From Oscillospiraceae bacterium (GTDB lineage Bacteria > Bacillota > Clostridia > Oscillospirales > CAG-382), in NCBI GenBank assembly GCA_015063885.1, contig SVTH01000007.1:41566-105565 (forward strand): a DNA stretch of 64,000 bases, in the 5' to 3' direction. Positions 42,725 to 48,193 of the stretch are shown in pieces. The position numbers were made by a program, and so were the translations under genes. Below the pieces are notes generated by a model. That model searched no databases, was not told the origin of the DNA, and worked only from the letters and a program-made list of their open reading frames with translations. Every line of letters starts with the position of its first letter. Position 1 is the first letter of the stretch.

Positions 42725-43429
42725 ATGATCGTAGATCCCATCGCCGATCTCTTGGGCACTTGGTCCACGGAGATCAATCTCTGTTCCGTACTGCTCCGTG
42801 TGGCAGTCTCGGTGATCCTGGGCATGCTCATCGGCTGTGAGCGCTCCAGCAAGCGTCACGCCGCGGGGCTTCGCACCTTTATGCTGGTGTCCCTGGCCAG
42901 TACCGTGGCCATTCTGATGGATCTGTACTTAGGGCGGGACCTGTTCCTGCTGTCCGCCGCTTCCGTCATCGGCATCGCCATCATCACCGTGAACTCCGTG
43001 CTGTTCACCTCCCGCAATCAGATCAAGGGGCTCACCACCTCCGTGGGACTTTGGGCCTGCGGGATCCTGGGGCTGGCCATCGGCGCAGGGCTGTATACCG
43101 TCACCATCGTGGCGTTTTTGGCCTTGCTTTGCAGTCTCTCCCTGTTCCCCCACGTGGAAGGGTATCTGAAAAACCGTTCCAACCACTTTGAGGTGCACCT
43201 GGAGCTGAAGAACGTGGCGTACCTGCAAAACTTCGTGGCCACCATCCGTGAGCTGGGGCTGACCATCGACGAGATCGAGGCCAATACCGCGTACCTGAAT
43301 TCGGGGCTGGCGGTGTACTCCCTGGCACTGACCATCACCGGCAAGGAGCTGCGGAAGTACAAGACCCACATCGAGATCATCCGTGCCCTGGGCTCTTTGG
43401 AGTACGTCAACCACATCGAAGAGATCTGA
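42725..43429 (+). CDS. MgtC/SapB family protein with a C-terminal ACT-like domain
   Basis: ...GMLIGCERSSKRHAAGLRTFMLV... MgtC signature. Confidence 0.85.
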   Translation: MIVDPIADLLGTWSTEINLCSVLLRVAVSVILGMLIGCERSSKRHAAGLRTFMLVSLASTVAILMDLYLGRDLFLLSAASVIGIAIITVNSVLFTSRNQIKGLTTSVGLWACGILGLAIGAGLYTVTIVAFLALLCSLSLFPHVEGYLKNRSNHFEVHLELKNVAYLQNFVATIRELGLTIDEIEANTAYLNSGLAVYSLALTITGKELRKYKTHIEIIRALGSLEYVNHIEEI

Positions 43430-43485
43430 AAAATATGCAAAACAAAAGCGACCTGCAAACGCAGGTCGCATTTTTTTGAAAACTT

Positions 43486-43959
43486 TTACGTGTTGGTGAA
43501 TACCGTGGAAAGATAGCACATCAATGCCAGAACCAGGGTAATCACGCCGGGCAGGTAGCTGAGAAGCTTCTTGTCCTTTTTGATGTAGTTACGCACCAAA
43601 CCCACGGCGGTGCTGATAAAGCCCAGTGCCAAAGCCACGATAGAGCAGAGGGAGGTGGTCAGGAAGGGGAGATCCCAAGCCTGCTCGGTCCACTCGGTGG
43701 TGACCTCGCCGGTCTTTCTGTTGGTAACCTCTTCAAACCAATGGTAGCTCAGGGAAGCGTAGCCTTCTTTATTGTTCATGGCATTCTGTCCCAGCAGAGC
43801 GAACAGCAGTGCAACCACGGCGATGATCCAAGCGGCGGCAAACAGAATGCTGTGGAGTTCTCTTTTATCCTTGCCTGCCTTCTTTTTCTTCTCCACTACG
43901 GGAGCAACGGCTTCATTCTGTTCCAGAACTTCCTCGGCAGCGACGTTTTTATTCTTCAT
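43486..43959 (-). CDS. Membrane protein, unknown function
   Basis: 157 aa with about 3 TM helices. A bidirectional terminator lies at about 43444-43477. Confidence 0.6.
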   Translation of the reverse strand: MKNKNVAAEEVLEQNEAVAPVVEKKKKAGKDKRELHSILFAAAWIIAVVALLFALLGQNAMNNKEGYASLSYHWFEEVTNRKTGEVTTEWTEQAWDLPFLTTSLCSIVALALGFISTAVGLVRNYIKKDKKLLSYLPGVITLVLALMCYLSTVFTNT

Positions 43960-44078
43960 GGCAAAATAACTCCTTATGATCGTTTCCTATATGTTACCAC
44001 ATTTCCCGCAGGATGTCAACCGTTATTTTGTAGAAACAGATGTCAAAAAATTGTCGGATTTGACGGAAAACCCCTGTT

Positions 44079-46382
44079 TTATTTCCCTTTCAGCTCCACG
44101 CGGCGGATCTTGCCGGAGATGGTCTTGGGCAATTCGGAGACGAATTCCACCACTCTGGGATACTTGTAGGGTGCGGTATGGGTCTTCACGTAAGTCTGGA
44201 TCTCCTTCACCAGAGCGTCGCTTTCTTGGGTCCCCTTGGTAAGGACGATGGTGGCCTTGACCACCTGGCCGCGGACGGGATCGGGAACGCCGGTAACGGC
44301 ACATTCCAGCACGTAGGGGAGCTCCATAAGGACGCTTTCGATCTCGAAGGGCCCGATACGGTAGCCGGAGGACTTGATGAGGTCGTCGGTTCTGCCCACG
44401 TACCAGTAGAAGCCGTCCTCGTCCTTCCAGGCGGTGTCGCCGGTGTGGTAGAATCCGTCGTGCATAGCGGCCCGGGTCTTTTCAAGATCTCTGTAATAGC
44501 CCATGAACAGACCGTAGGGCTTGTTGCCTTCCTCGTAGCGGATGCAGATCTCGCCCACTTCGCCCACGGCGCAGGGAGTGCCGTCCTCGTGGAAGATGTC
44601 CACGTCGTAAGCAGGGGAGGGAACGCCCATGGAGCCGGGACGGGGTGTCTCACCGTAAAGATTACCGATGGTGAGGGTGGTCTCCGTCTGTCCGAAGGCC
44701 TCCATGATCTTCAAGCCCGTAGCCTCGTGGAACTTGTTCCAAACCTCGGGGTTCAGAGCCTCGCCGGCGGTGCAGGCGTAACGGATGGTGGAAAGATCGT
44801 ATTTGGTCAGATCGCACTTGATCAGGAAGCGGTAGATGGTGGGAGGTGCGCAGAAGGTGGTCACGCCGCACTGTGCAAACAGGGGGAGCATCTTCTCGGG
44901 ATCAAACCGATCGTAGTTGTAAACGAACACAGCGCACTCGCAGAACCAACAGCCGTAAAGCTTGCCCCACAGCGCCTTACCCCAGCCGGTATCGGAGGCG
45001 GTGAAATGCAATCCCTCGGGATCCACGCAATGCCACCAGCGGGCGGTGATGAGATGCCCCAGGGCGTAGCCGTGGTCGTGGGTGGCGATGCGGGGGTAGC
45101 CCGTGGTACCGGAGGTGAACAGCTGGATCATAGGCTCCTCCAGCTTGGTGTCCACTCTGTCGAAATGCTTGGAGAAGCGGCGTACCTCGGTGTCGTAATC
45201 GTGCCAGCCCTCACGGCTGCCGTTGACCAGCACCAGGGTCTTCACCGTCTCGCACTTGGCGGCTGCGTTTTCCGCCTCTTCGGCAACCTTGCCGTCGGCG
45301 GTACAGCAGATGGCGGAGACGCCCGCCGCATCAAAGCGGTAAACGAAGTCCTTTTCCACCAGCTGATTGGTGGCGGGGATGGCAACCGCCCCCAGCTTGT
45401 GAAGGGCCAGAATTGCAAACCAGAACTGATAGTGGCGCTTCAGCACCAGCATCACACGGTCGCCCTTCTTGATGCCCAGGGACGCAAAATAGTTGGCGGT
45501 GCGGTTCACCTCGTCCTGGAGCTCCTTGAAGGTGAAATCTCTCCGGGAAAGGTCGTTGTCCACCCAGACCATGGCACGCTTGGAGGGGCATTTTTCCGCC
45601 AGGGCGTCCATGACGTCGTAGGCGAAGTTGAAGTTTTCGGGCGGGGTGAAGCGGATGTTCTTCAGCCTGCCGTTTTCGTCGATCTCCTCCTCCACGAATC
45701 TCTTGTAGATGCAGTTCTCGTATCTCTTGTTGTAGGCTACGGGATCCGCAAAGGAATCCACCTCTTTTGCAAGGAAGGGAGTCTCCTGCAAAACGGGCTG
45801 GTTTTCGGGGGTCTCCCCCTCCTTGTGGACGATGGCCAGGAACTTACAGTCTCTCCCCCCCATGGCAACCATACCGTGGGCGTGCTCGGACTCGTAGAAG
45901 ATGCTGTCTCCCTCGTTGAGGATGAATACGTGATCGTCCAGCTGGATGCGGAGCTGACCCTCCAGCACCATATCGAACTCCTGCCCGGGGTGGGTGGCCA
46001 GCTCGATGGGTGCGTTTTCCTTGGCGGCGTCGTATACCGCGGTGACCACGAAGGGCTCGGAAAGACGGTTCTTCAAGAAGGGCGCCACGTGGCGGTAATG
46101 GAAGCCGTCCCCCTTACGGATGGGCATGCCGCCTCCCGCACGGGTAAGTGTAAAGAAGCCCAGCTTGGGATCCGTGCCGGAGACCAGCTCGGAAAGGTCC
46201 ATCTGCAGCGTCAAAGCGCAGTTGTACAAAAAGTTAAAGTAAAAATCCTTTTCCCCTTTTTCCAGCTCCAGATACTCCTCTGCGGTGATCCCGCAGGCGG
46301 AGGCCAGGGCCTCGGGGGAGACGTCGGCGTTGATACGCGCCCACTTCAATCGTTCGGCGATGAGTTTGGTCTGCTGTTCCAT
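44079..46382 (-). CDS. Fusion protein: XRE-type HTH + cupin domain fused to an AMP-forming (medium/short-chain) acyl-CoA synthetase
   Basis: N-terminus IAERLKWARINADVSPEALASACGITAEEYLELEKG (HTH), then cupin (GDSIFYESEHAHG). This is followed by adenylate-forming motifs (FTSGTTGYPR, YGQTE, GDTAWKDEDGFYWYVGRTDD, ISGKIRR). Confidence 0.85.
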   Translation of the reverse strand: MEQQTKLIAERLKWARINADVSPEALASACGITAEEYLELEKGEKDFYFNFLYNCALTLQMDLSELVSGTDPKLGFFTLTRAGGGMPIRKGDGFHYRHVAPFLKNRLSEPFVVTAVYDAAKENAPIELATHPGQEFDMVLEGQLRIQLDDHVFILNEGDSIFYESEHAHGMVAMGGRDCKFLAIVHKEGETPENQPVLQETPFLAKEVDSFADPVAYNKRYENCIYKRFVEEEIDENGRLKNIRFTPPENFNFAYDVMDALAEKCPSKRAMVWVDNDLSRRDFTFKELQDEVNRTANYFASLGIKKGDRVMLVLKRHYQFWFAILALHKLGAVAIPATNQLVEKDFVYRFDAAGVSAICCTADGKVAEEAENAAAKCETVKTLVLVNGSREGWHDYDTEVRRFSKHFDRVDTKLEEPMIQLFTSGTTGYPRIATHDHGYALGHLITARWWHCVDPEGLHFTASDTGWGKALWGKLYGCWFCECAVFVYNYDRFDPEKMLPLFAQCGVTTFCAPPTIYRFLIKCDLTKYDLSTIRYACTAGEALNPEVWNKFHEATGLKIMEAFGQTETTLTIGNLYGETPRPGSMGVPSPAYDVDIFHEDGTPCAVGEVGEICIRYEEGNKPYGLFMGYYRDLEKTRAAMHDGFYHTGDTAWKDEDGFYWYVGRTDDLIKSSGYRIGPFEIESVLMELPYVLECAVTGVPDPVRGQVVKATIVLTKGTQESDALVKEIQTYVKTHTAPYKYPRVVEFVSELPKTISGKIRRVELKGK

Positions 46383-46443
46383 GTCTTTTGTTCCTTTCTG
46401 TTCCTTGGAGAGTTTTCCTGTGCTTGGCGTTGCCTGTGAGAGG

Positions 46444-46700
46444 AAAAAAGAAAGACTTTATCTGCAACGAGATAAAGTCTTTGAAACCAAAGGTACTTTA
46501 CAACCACTCATTTGACACGTCAACCAACGTTTTTCCCTTTCTACGGCGGAAACTCCGTCAACACCTGACCAAAAACAGGCTCGGCGTTGCGGCTCGGAGG
46601 TGATAAGCATCCACGTCGGCTCCTGCCTCGCACCAAACGGCAGGTCTCTGAAAACCGAAGAAGGCGAACGCCCTTGTCCTCGTCATAGCTTTTATGAAGT
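46444..46700 (-). promoter_or_regulatory. T-box riboswitch leader, candidate specifier AUC (Ile)
   Basis: GA/K-turn motif, AGAGA bulge and GGUGCGA distal loop. ..UUAUC-A-CCUC specifier context. UGGU-bulge antiterminator sharing its 3' arm with the terminator AAAGACUUUAUCU/AGAUAAAGUCUUU plus a U-run. Confidence 0.7.
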
Positions 46701-46707
46701 TGTGGAG

Positions 46708-46736
46708 ATTATAGCACGGCTTTTTTTATTTGTCAA
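46708..46736 (-). promoter_or_regulatory. Consensus sigma-A promoter (TTGACA-N17-TATAAT) driving the T-box leader
   Basis: Read directly on the minus strand. Confidence 0.8.
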
Positions 46737-46768
46737 TAGGTTTTCGTGAGTTTTCTATCATTTTTTTC

Positions 46769-48193
46769 TTATCGAACGTAGCCCATCCATTGATCCATGG
46801 CGGAAAGGCGGGTCTGGATATAGCGGGAGAGGGTCTCCGCCGTGACGGCGTTTTCCGCGATCTCCGGCTGCAAGGTGCTTTCCGTCTCCAAAAGCCCCGC
46901 TTCGATCCCCTTTTGCTGCTGCAGGAAGCTTTCGTAAAGGATGGCGGGGGAGCGGAGAACGGTGGCACGGAGCTGGGCGTAACGGGTCTTCAATTCCTCC
47001 CCGAACACCTTGCAAAGCCGTTGCCACAGCAGGCTGTCCCCTTGGTAGGACACGCCGCCCTCCCCATCGGGAGCGGGCACGCCCAGGGTGGCAGAGGTCT
47101 GCACGCCCTTCTCCGTCAGCCCGTAGGCGGTGTGGAGGGGGGAGAAGGAGGGGATCCAATGGACCCCGTCCGCCGTGGACCAAAGGGTACCCGTGGTATC
47201 TCCGTTGCCGGAGCCGAAGTATACCGTCAAAAGGAAATGATCCATCAAGGCGGTGACGTCGGTATATTGGGAAAGCTGTTTCTTCATTTCATCGTCGGAG
47301 GCCTGGCGGATAAAGCGGGAGAAGCCGCCGAAGCTCTCCTTGGCCCAATCTGCGCTTTCCGTGGAGCAATGGAGCACCGCAAAGCCGCTGTCCCCTTCGC
47401 CATAGGCGGGGTTTGCCAGGAACAGGGTTCCTTCGTTCTGCACGACGGCGGAAAGCACCGCCGTGGGACTGCCGTGGAAGCCGCTGAAGGCGCAGGCCCA
47501 ATCTCCCGGAGGCGGGGTCAAGCGGTAAAGACCCAGGTAGACCTCCCCGCTGTAGACCTGTACGGGGAAACCGCCCTGCAAGGGCGCGGCGTACCACTCC
47601 GGCGCATCAGAGGCGCTTTCACGCAGCTGCTTGCAGGCGTTCAAAACCACCTCTGCAGCGGCGGCACGGGCGTAGGTCAGGTCGGGAATACAGGGATCCA
47701 AGCGGTAAACGCTTTGCTCGCCCCAGCCCAGATCCACCGGGAAGGGGGCGCCGTTTTTAGAGAGGGAAAGGGTGATTGCAGGCTTGTCCGTGCCCTGCTC
47801 GGCGGCCGCACCGCTTTCGCAGGTGAACTGCAGGTCGCCGTGGGAATAGGAAAGAACGCCCTCGGCACCGAGATACACCTTGGGGAGTGCGGAGGTGCTT
47901 TCCGTGTCCTTGGTCTGGAGGTTCCCGCAGGTCTTGCAGATGCGGTAGGATTCTCCTCCGGAGGTCAACGTGGCCTCCACCCCTGCCACCCAGTCCCCGT
48001 AGGTGTGGGGCACCGTGGCGCGGTAATCGGAAAAATAGGTGTCTCCGCATGCACAGGTGTGGGCGGTGTAGCCCATTTCCGTGCAGGTGGGGAGGATCAC
48101 CGTATCGGTATAGGAATGCTCGTGGGGAGCGCATCCCGCCAACAGCAGGAGGCTCGCCAGCGTCAGGCAGGCAAATTTCTTCAAGGAGCTCAT
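46769..48193 (-). CDS. Lipoprotein with an N-terminal Cys-rich (C..C / TC..CG) module and a large domain of unknown function (faint CotH-like impression)
   Basis: MSSLKKFACLTLASLLLLAGC lipobox. About 474 aa. Confidence 0.65.
   Translation of the reverse strand: MSSLKKFACLTLASLLLLAGCAPHEHSYTDTVILPTCTEMGYTAHTCACGDTYFSDYRATVPHTYGDWVAGVEATLTSGGESYRICKTCGNLQTKDTESTSALPKVYLGAEGVLSYSHGDLQFTCESGAAAEQGTDKPAITLSLSKNGAPFPVDLGWGEQSVYRLDPCIPDLTYARAAAAEVVLNACKQLRESASDAPEWYAAPLQGGFPVQVYSGEVYLGLYRLTPPPGDWACAFSGFHGSPTAVLSAVVQNEGTLFLANPAYGEGDSGFAVLHCSTESADWAKESFGGFSRFIRQASDDEMKKQLSQYTDVTALMDHFLLTVYFGSGNGDTTGTLWSTADGVHWIPSFSPLHTAYGLTEKGVQTSATLGVPAPDGEGGVSYQGDSLLWQRLCKVFGEELKTRYAQLRATVLRSPAILYESFLQQQKGIEAGLLETESTLQPEIAENAVTAETLSRYIQTRLSAMDQWMGYVR

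Follow-up and report, generated by a model that had tools for sequence, protein, structure and literature searches.

We analysed a leader RNA encoded on the minus strand of a 64,000-nucleotide stretch of an Oscillospiraceae genome (the window), together with the gene that it precedes, which encodes an acyl-CoA synthetase fused to an N-terminal helix-turn-helix (HTH)-cupin module. The leader is very probably a functional isoleucine T-box of the class-I, transcriptional type for tRNA-Ile(GAU), as judged from an RNA architecture that is conserved and covaries among homologous leaders and from an isoleucine codon that is invariant at the specifier position. Taken with the enzyme family and with gene co-occurrence, these features point to a system that probably serves the isoleucine-starvation-induced salvage of 2-methylbutyrate by reductive carboxylation, a reading that includes both the substrate and the direction of flux. 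The RNA class is well known; the target appears to be new.

The leader and its specifier

The leader carries the full set of elements from promoter to terminator (Table 1). A sequence-only reading of this DNA had proposed the promoter, Stem I, AGAGA bulge, distal hairpin, antiterminator and terminator on the minus strand, with an AUC specifier in Stem I; all lie where it had placed them, the AUC to the nucleotide, and its identification of a T-box is borne out by a covariance-model match over the full length of the model and by covariation of the structure. The promoter scores 12/12 against consensus, has a TG upstream of its -10 element, and is the sole perfect site found by a consensus scan within 43000-47500. 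Stem I combines a K-turn with a specifier loop in which AUC-A adjoins the GAGG/CCUC helix, and a tRNA-elbow platform made of the AGAGA bulge and a GGUGNRA-like distal loop, GUUUGGUGCGA. The antiterminator carries a UGGN bulge together with helix A1 (GAG/CUC) and a covarying helix A2, and its 3' arm overlaps the 5' arm of the terminator in the common stretch ACUUUAUCU, making the two structures mutually exclusive as is characteristic of the T-box class. Folding gave -7.4 kcal/mol for the antiterminator, with the UGGU kept single-stranded, and -18.5 kcal/mol for the terminator. T-boxes usually have an antiterminator weaker than the terminator, so that it would take a bound tRNA to shift the balance.

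The sequence-only reading had proposed a search with the Rfam T-box model RF00230. With permissive filters the model matched 46695..46489 at 52 bits, covering model positions 1-219 and thus its full length (E=1.5e-10 in a local scan, 1.4e-10 in a genome-wide search), a score significant in itself and below the RF00230 gathering score of 93 bits. The default Rfam scan, which applies that gathering score, called no T-box at the leader. Genome-wide, the RF00230 search found three T-boxes in all, none of them upstream of an aminoacyl-tRNA synthetase gene, and a loose regular-expression scan of the whole genome for further T-boxes returned only noise. Both of the other two also fall under 93 bits, a canonical tryptophan T-box at 77 and the other at 68; because even the canonical one fails, we conclude that the sub-threshold score of the leader reflects the cut-off and not the element. 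Posterior probability in the alignment is high at the specifier columns and for the K-turn, AGAGA and GGUG distal loop; the specifier triplet of the model falls on the AUC and its conserved purine on A46601. The Stem II-III region also aligned with its RF00230 counterpart, Stem III at a lower posterior probability.

Sufficient upstream sequence was available for approximately 72 homologous loci, and 60 of these have a T-box leader with the canonical AAUUUGAGUGGUACCGCGGG. In a 61-row alignment the specifier AUC (ATC in DNA) is invariant (61/61), as are the AGAGA (61/61) and several other signature bases. The base 3' of the AUC is A in 49 leaders, C in 11 and G in one. The base 5' of it varies between C, U and A, and the -1 register was rejected as a specifier for this lack of conservation. 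To count pairing in the 4-bp base helix that flanks the specifier we used alignment A1, whose members had been picked solely by a T-box motif about 200 nucleotides downstream, and excluded alignment A4, which had been selected by complementarity; the helix is fully paired in 57 of 60 leaders, as GAAG/CUUC in 46, GAGG/CCUC in 10 (the 46736-46444 leader included) and GGGA/UCUC in one. Compensatory changes occur at all six pairs of the distal helix (6/6) and, in a nine-sequence alignment, at 5 of 11 pairs of the terminator. RNAalifold on MAFFT alignments did not recover the antiterminator and most of Stem I, where segments of variable length misalign; the antiterminator was folded sequence by sequence and Stem I pairs were tallied by a count of named structures.

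Two parts of the leader differ from the class consensus. The S-turn reads AGGG/GCU where AGUA/GAA would be expected, and the T-box sequence lacks its 3' half, ACCGCG, a different helix standing in its place. ACCGCG is likewise missing from same-family leaders and present in the L004-L083 set. Same-family leaders L106-L118 have in common the variant CAAAUGAG-UGGU-(bulge)-helix-CUC, in which the inner helix covaries, being UAAAGU/ACUUUA in this leader and AUGAAG/CUUCAU or AUGAUG/CCUCAU in others. Because the variant antiterminator is common to the family and its changes are compensated, we regard the leader as a family-specific form and not as a decayed one.

Some loci differ further. At G020:C1 (L110) GAGCGGU stands where others have GAGUGGU, a possible inactivating change; in two relatives, L113 (G051:C74) and L117 (G023:C3), no T-box leader precedes the fusion gene. 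Some 11 loci of the L004-L083 set, labelled "Ruminococcus sp.", have a short and different leader. At the very 5' end of most L004-L083 leaders, between the -10 element and Stem I, lies the strongly conserved AUUUGAAUAUCACAAA (for example L005, L009, L017, L018, L022, L036 and L037), of which CUCCACAAC is a weak counterpart in the 46736-46444 leader; the element may belong to the RNA itself or serve the HTH-cupin domain as an operator.

We did not find tRNA-Ile(GAU) in this assembly, which is 85% complete, or in 30 genomes of the same genus; the gene probably sits in unassembled rRNA operons. It is present, adjoining tRNA-Ala(UGC), in G062, the most contiguous member of the family and of another genus. 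The 3' end of that tRNA is GAGCCC-A-CCA, and its discriminator A73 would pair Watson-Crick with the U of UGGU, which is the complementarity expected between UGGN and discriminator; the discriminator check that the sequence-only reading had suggested is thus favourable when made with the gene of a family member. Together with the alignment, this supports the prediction of isoleucine (AUC) as the specifier.

Table 1. Features of the leader and of the gene downstream of it in the window (position 1 is the first nucleotide of the window)
Feature	Position	Strand	Details
Leader (promoter, T-box, terminator)	46736-46444	minus	full set present
Sigma-70 promoter	46708..46736	minus	TTGACA 46736-46731, 17-nt spacer, TATAAT 46713-46708; consensus scan
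T-box Stem I	46592..46689	minus	RF00230 alignment and covariation
K-turn halves	46685-46683 and 46595-46593	minus	UGA / GAG; base of Stem I
Stem I base helix	46681-46678 and 46600-46597	minus	GAGG paired with CCUC
AG bulge	46649-46645	minus	AGAGA; Stem I
Distal hairpin	46644-46622	minus	CCUGCC-GUUUGGUGCGA-GGCAGG; loop GUUUGGUGCGA, GGUG distal loop
Specifier and 3' purine	46601..46604	minus	AUC (isoleucine) 46604-46602, A46601; RF00230 specifier columns
Stem II, Stem IIA/B region, Stem III	46512..46591	minus	Stem III UUGAC-GU-GUCAA, 46523-46512; boundaries approximate
T-box sequence and antiterminator	46469..46513	minus	AAAUGAG-UGGU-U-GUAAAGU ... ACUUUAU-CUC
Antiterminator helix A1 and bulge	46509-46507, 46506-46503, 46471-46469	minus	GAG, UGGU bulge, CUC; A1 is GAG/CUC
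Intrinsic terminator	46444..46482	minus	13-bp stem 46482-46451, 6-nt loop, then CUUUUUU
Ribosome-binding site	46398-46392	minus	GAAAGGA; ahead of the fusion gene
Regulated gene	44079..46382	minus	HTH-cupin-acyl-CoA synthetase fusion, 767 aa
Domains of the fusion (Pfam)			residues: HTH_19 10-71, Cupin_2 127-185, AMP-binding 262-630, AMP-binding_C 680-758

The regulated enzyme and its metabolic setting

Both synthetase domains of the fusion are full length (PF00501, 7e-60; PF13193, 3e-23). Its closest match in the PDB, by a wide margin, is the Methanosarcina acetivorans enzyme MacsMa (3ETC), which aligns end-to-end (667 bits), residues 240-767 of the fusion being 55% identical to it. MacsMa adenylates C3-C8 acids, has 2-methylbutyrate as its preferred acyl substrate, and completes the thioester step efficiently with that acid only; an alternate Trp259 and a Gly that replaces the Trp of Acs are both critical in its pocket (PMC10455477). 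Both residues are conserved in the fusion (Trp259 in ARWWH versus AKYWQ, and the Gly in FGQTET). The top NCBIfam model is MbcS (NF047394), at 468.6 bits against an equivalog cut-off of 850. We infer an AMP-forming short- or branched-chain acyl-CoA synthetase of the MacsMa/MbcS type with an N-terminal HTH-cupin module. The sequence-only reading had called the target an acyl-CoA synthetase fusion and neither an aminoacyl-tRNA synthetase nor a biosynthetic gene; the class of enzyme stands, as does its not being an aminoacyl-tRNA synthetase, but the gene is best seen as biosynthetic in the sense of salvage, and it therefore fits ordinary T-box logic and is no exception to it.

Species-representative genomes contain over 587 relatives that match the fusion at full length. 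Its carriers are nearly all metagenome-assembled genomes of gut and rumen Clostridia with Oscillospiraceae, Acutalibacteraceae, Ruminococcus or Christensenellaceae labels, with one cultured organism, Neglectibacter timonensis (SN17, L045), among them. Across 80 loci we found no conserved operon partners, and the gene is apparently monocistronic. Most genomes of the family also encode a stand-alone synthetase paralog of about 555 residues, roughly 50% identical and lacking the HTH-cupin module (for example G015:C47:3813-5390 and G013:C7:88494-90071; L089-L104). Because a T-box was found upstream of none of 16 such loci (0/16), the T-box goes specifically with the HTH-cupin form. Directly downstream of the fusion gene in the window, 43486-43959 on the minus strand encodes a predicted membrane protein of 157 residues with no Pfam match, which has its own promoter-like site (44019-43991), is followed by a bidirectional terminator (43448-43469), and is not conserved beside the fusion at other loci.

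The remaining enzymes of branched-chain metabolism were sought by tblastn with E. coli queries. We found IlvE and the IlvI/IlvH pair, and no match in the genome to IlvC, IlvD, IlvA or LeuA/B/C/D. IlvI and IlvH (the large and small subunits of acetolactate synthase) lie at a contig edge (G000:C16:264-2284). Absences from a single assembly at 85% completeness are weak evidence, and it is the family-wide pattern that carries the argument. IlvD is also missing in the close relatives G013, G015 and G016, which are 97-98% complete, and we extended the comparison to 83 genomes of the family (completeness 90% or more in 81). Forty-two have the fusion and lack IlvD, 15 have both, 24 have IlvD and lack the fusion, and two have neither (Fisher p=1e-8, uncorrected for phylogeny). 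The fusion is thus present in 42 of 44 IlvD-less genomes, and one of the two exceptions has a partial fusion. Within genus g1 it occurs in all 20 IlvD-less genomes (20/20) and is missing in 2 of 4 IlvD-positive ones.

The genome also encodes a 2-oxoacid:ferredoxin oxidoreductase of the four-subunit type, the alpha subunit of which is VorB (542 against an NCBIfam cut-off of 399), with the delta and beta subunits adjoining it. VorB orthologs are present in all fusion-bearing genomes (57/57) and missing in G021, G024, genera g5 and g13 and most of g12, which are IlvD-positive and lack the fusion. At G001:C15 VorB, the stand-alone paralog, the fusion and a second synthetase fusion lie inside 10 kb; G002:C116 and G019:C245 have similar clusters, and in genera g6 and g11 VorB, in its VOR operon, adjoins the stand-alone paralog. 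Ligase, VOR and IlvE are exactly the enzyme set for making isoleucine from 2-methylbutyrate and CO2. The suggestion in the sequence-only reading that the enzyme might feed 2-methylbutyrate into reductive carboxylation gains support from the likeness to MacsMa, the MbcS model, the anticorrelation with IlvD and the co-occurrence with VorB, each of them a comparison of sequences or gene content. Elsewhere in the genome (G000:C6:52434-54654, L088) an AMP-binding gene lies directly upstream of a 593-residue indolepyruvate-ferredoxin-oxidoreductase-like gene, which may be an analogous salvage pair for aryl acids.

A second T-box of the genome (C22:146364-146572) reads GAA-CUC-A at the specifier position, that is leucine, and precedes an 843-residue fusion of a TIM-barrel domain with an AMP-binding enzyme (G000:C22:146364-149215, L002/L120). 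This fusion is present in 64 of the 83 family genomes and in some adjoins the isoleucine-controlled one. Its leaders keep ...GAACUCACCC... across genera, with CUC-A conserved. Most of these leucine leaders lack a canonical T-box sequence; in its stead stands a small hairpin that covaries and has a loop of the UG(C/U)UGG type, and the terminator lies further away. Those of genus g8 retain AAGAGUGGUACCGCGG. The third T-box (G000:C9:30512-30758, L001), with a UGG (tryptophan) specifier and the canonical GGGUGGCACCGC, precedes a TrpB-like pyridoxal-phosphate enzyme.

A proposed mechanism and its alternatives

We infer the following scheme for how tRNA governs read-through, which acid is used and which way the flux runs. 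Transcription would start at the strong constitutive promoter and, while tRNA-Ile is charged, the 13-bp terminator would form and end it ahead of the gene. When isoleucine is scarce, the anticodon of uncharged tRNA-Ile would pair with the AUC in the specifier loop of Stem I, its elbow would dock on the platform of AGAGA and distal loop, and its free ACCA end would pair with the UGGU bulge, stabilising the weaker antiterminator and letting the polymerase read into the gene. The fusion enzyme would then most likely convert exogenous 2-methylbutyrate, a fermentation acid abundant in the gut and rumen, into 2-methylbutyryl-CoA, which the VorB-type oxidoreductase would reductively carboxylate to 2-oxo-3-methylvalerate and IlvE would transaminate to isoleucine. 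In this lineage the route would stand in for the missing classical ilv pathway.

Several of the results weigh against this scheme. On the RNA side, the leader scores below the gathering score, its S-turn and the 3' half of its T-box sequence depart from consensus, 11 of 61 leaders have a C and not a purine after the AUC, and tRNA-Ile(GAU) was missing from the assembly and its genus. On the metabolic side, the equivalog cut-off of MbcS is not reached and the substrate is extrapolated from 55% identity; the incomplete assembly and the lack of a phylogenetic correction bear on the association with IlvD loss; the 15 genomes that carry both IlvD and the fusion mean that the route is not a strict replacement; and co-occurrence of VOR with a synthetase would also be expected if the two jointly supplied branched acyl-CoA primers for lipids.

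This last point underlies the main rival, in which the T-box is a real isoleucine T-box and the enzyme works in the manner of MbcS, 2-methylbutyryl-CoA mainly starting anteiso branched-chain fatty acids. Isoleucine is the usual source of this primer via IlvE and VOR, and induction of the ligase when isoleucine is scarce would spare it for protein. MbcS, the top NCBIfam model for the fusion, serves in S. aureus to make branched-chain fatty acids from exogenous acids (PMC10026030, PMC11167679), and both the co-occurrence of VorB and the loss of IlvD fit equally well, so that co-occurrence data cannot separate the two readings. We nevertheless consider primer supply unlikely to be the main role. 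T-box regulons otherwise consist of genes for aminoacyl-tRNA synthetases, biosynthesis and transport that raise the charged-tRNA pool directly (PMC2494555), genomes without IlvD would be left with no isoleucine route, and a parallel leucine T-box on a second synthetase is more simply explained by amino-acid supply. The two roles, primer supply and isoleucine salvage, may both be true at once.

A route to isoleucine from propionate is known in clostridial physiology, propionyl-CoA being reductively carboxylated to 2-oxobutyrate and taken on to isoleucine by the IlvBCDE steps. We hold its use here to be highly improbable because it needs IlvC and IlvD, which are undetectable in this genome, IlvD being missing also in 42 of the 57 fusion-bearing genomes. 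The genome has kept homologs of IlvI/H, and the C3-C8 range of MacsMa in adenylation would admit propionate, but the thioester step is finished efficiently with 2-methylbutyrate alone (PMC10455477).

We likewise attach very little weight to a specifier one base further on, with which the leader would respond to a different tRNA. Read in that +1 register, every one of the 61 leaders presents a serine codon (UCA 49, UCC 11, UCG 1), and the purine that usually follows the AUC is missing in 11; yet the covariance model sets the AUC and not the +1 triplet in the specifier columns, the +1 triplet would leave no room for a purine between itself and the helix, and nothing connects this enzyme family with serine. 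In each of the five tRNA-Ser genes of the genome (5/5) the discriminator is G73, which the invariant UGGU would have to meet, whereas tRNA-Ile has A. Scarcely credible, too, is the idea that the T-box is in decay and has stopped switching, being constitutively off or leaky since the loss of ACCGCG: the 52-bit score, the non-consensus antiterminator, the GAGCGGU of G020 (L110) and the few relatives without a leader would suit it, but the variant antiterminator recurs across the family in covariation with the terminator, conservation extends to GAG-UGGU and CUC, and a perfect promoter and strong terminator are retained.

Isoleucine salvage thus remains our preferred reading, and it admits a bolder extension that we put forward tentatively, as something less likely true than false. 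Because only the form with the HTH-cupin module stands under the T-box, the fusion may itself be a second-tier regulator: once uncharged tRNA-Ile had allowed its synthesis, this module would bind DNA, sense a ligand and control further genes of salvage (VOR, ilvE, uptake) according to the acid or its CoA ester; with the leucine-T-box fusion it would form a modular, tRNA-sensed regulon for branched-acid salvage that replaces ilv and leu in hundreds of species of gut and rumen Clostridia.

Relation to known systems and significance

Compared with the class-I isoleucine T-boxes of Bacillota (RF00230; leaders of ileS and ilv-leu), the leader has the same K-turn, AUC with its purine, platform, Stem II/IIA-B/III, UGGN antiterminator and competing terminator, and the same logic, whereby a gene that replenishes an amino acid is switched on when its charged tRNA runs short. 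It differs in its sub-cut-off score, its non-consensus S-turn and the replacement of ACCGCG by an unrelated covarying helix, and above all in its target, a class of gene absent from a T-box regulon survey (PMC2494555). That open-access survey mentions neither CoA nor acyl, and a full-text literature search for T-box together with acyl-CoA synthetase gave nothing relevant, an earlier mention still being possible.

The fusion and MacsMa have the same catalytic region, pocket Trp and Gly in FGQTET, whereas the fusion has an additional N-terminal HTH-cupin module of about 230 residues, is bacterial and is controlled by a T-box, and its substrate is a prediction. MbcS of S. aureus, the best-scoring curated family, activates 2-methylbutyrate and isobutyrate; in contrast to the fusion, which is not an equivalog of it, MbcS lacks the HTH-cupin module and feeds fatty-acid synthesis, with no T-box regulation reported.

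It has been known for decades that rumen and gut anaerobes need branched-chain volatile fatty acids and carboxylate them to branched-chain amino acids, the classical route leading from 2-methylbutyrate through its acyl-CoA to the 2-oxo acid (VOR) and on to isoleucine (IlvE), as we propose here. That physiology assigned neither a gene to the activation of the acid nor a regulation to it and, to our knowledge, neither has since been pinned down; the fusion locus gives candidates for both. New here are the anticorrelation with IlvD, the perfect co-occurrence with VorB, the T-box-free stand-alone paralogs, the covarying antiterminator variant and the leucine twin on the TIM-barrel fusion.

We suggest that the leader ties the demand for isoleucine, sensed as the charging of tRNA-Ile, to a specific CoA ligase, which brings a new class of target into the T-box regulon and defines a testable gene set of ligase, VOR and IlvE. 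The finding bears on the supplementation of ruminant diets with isoacids and on models of cross-feeding in the gut microbiome, and salvage of 2-methylbutyrate would explain where IlvD-less Oscillospirales-like gut bacteria obtain their isoleucine.

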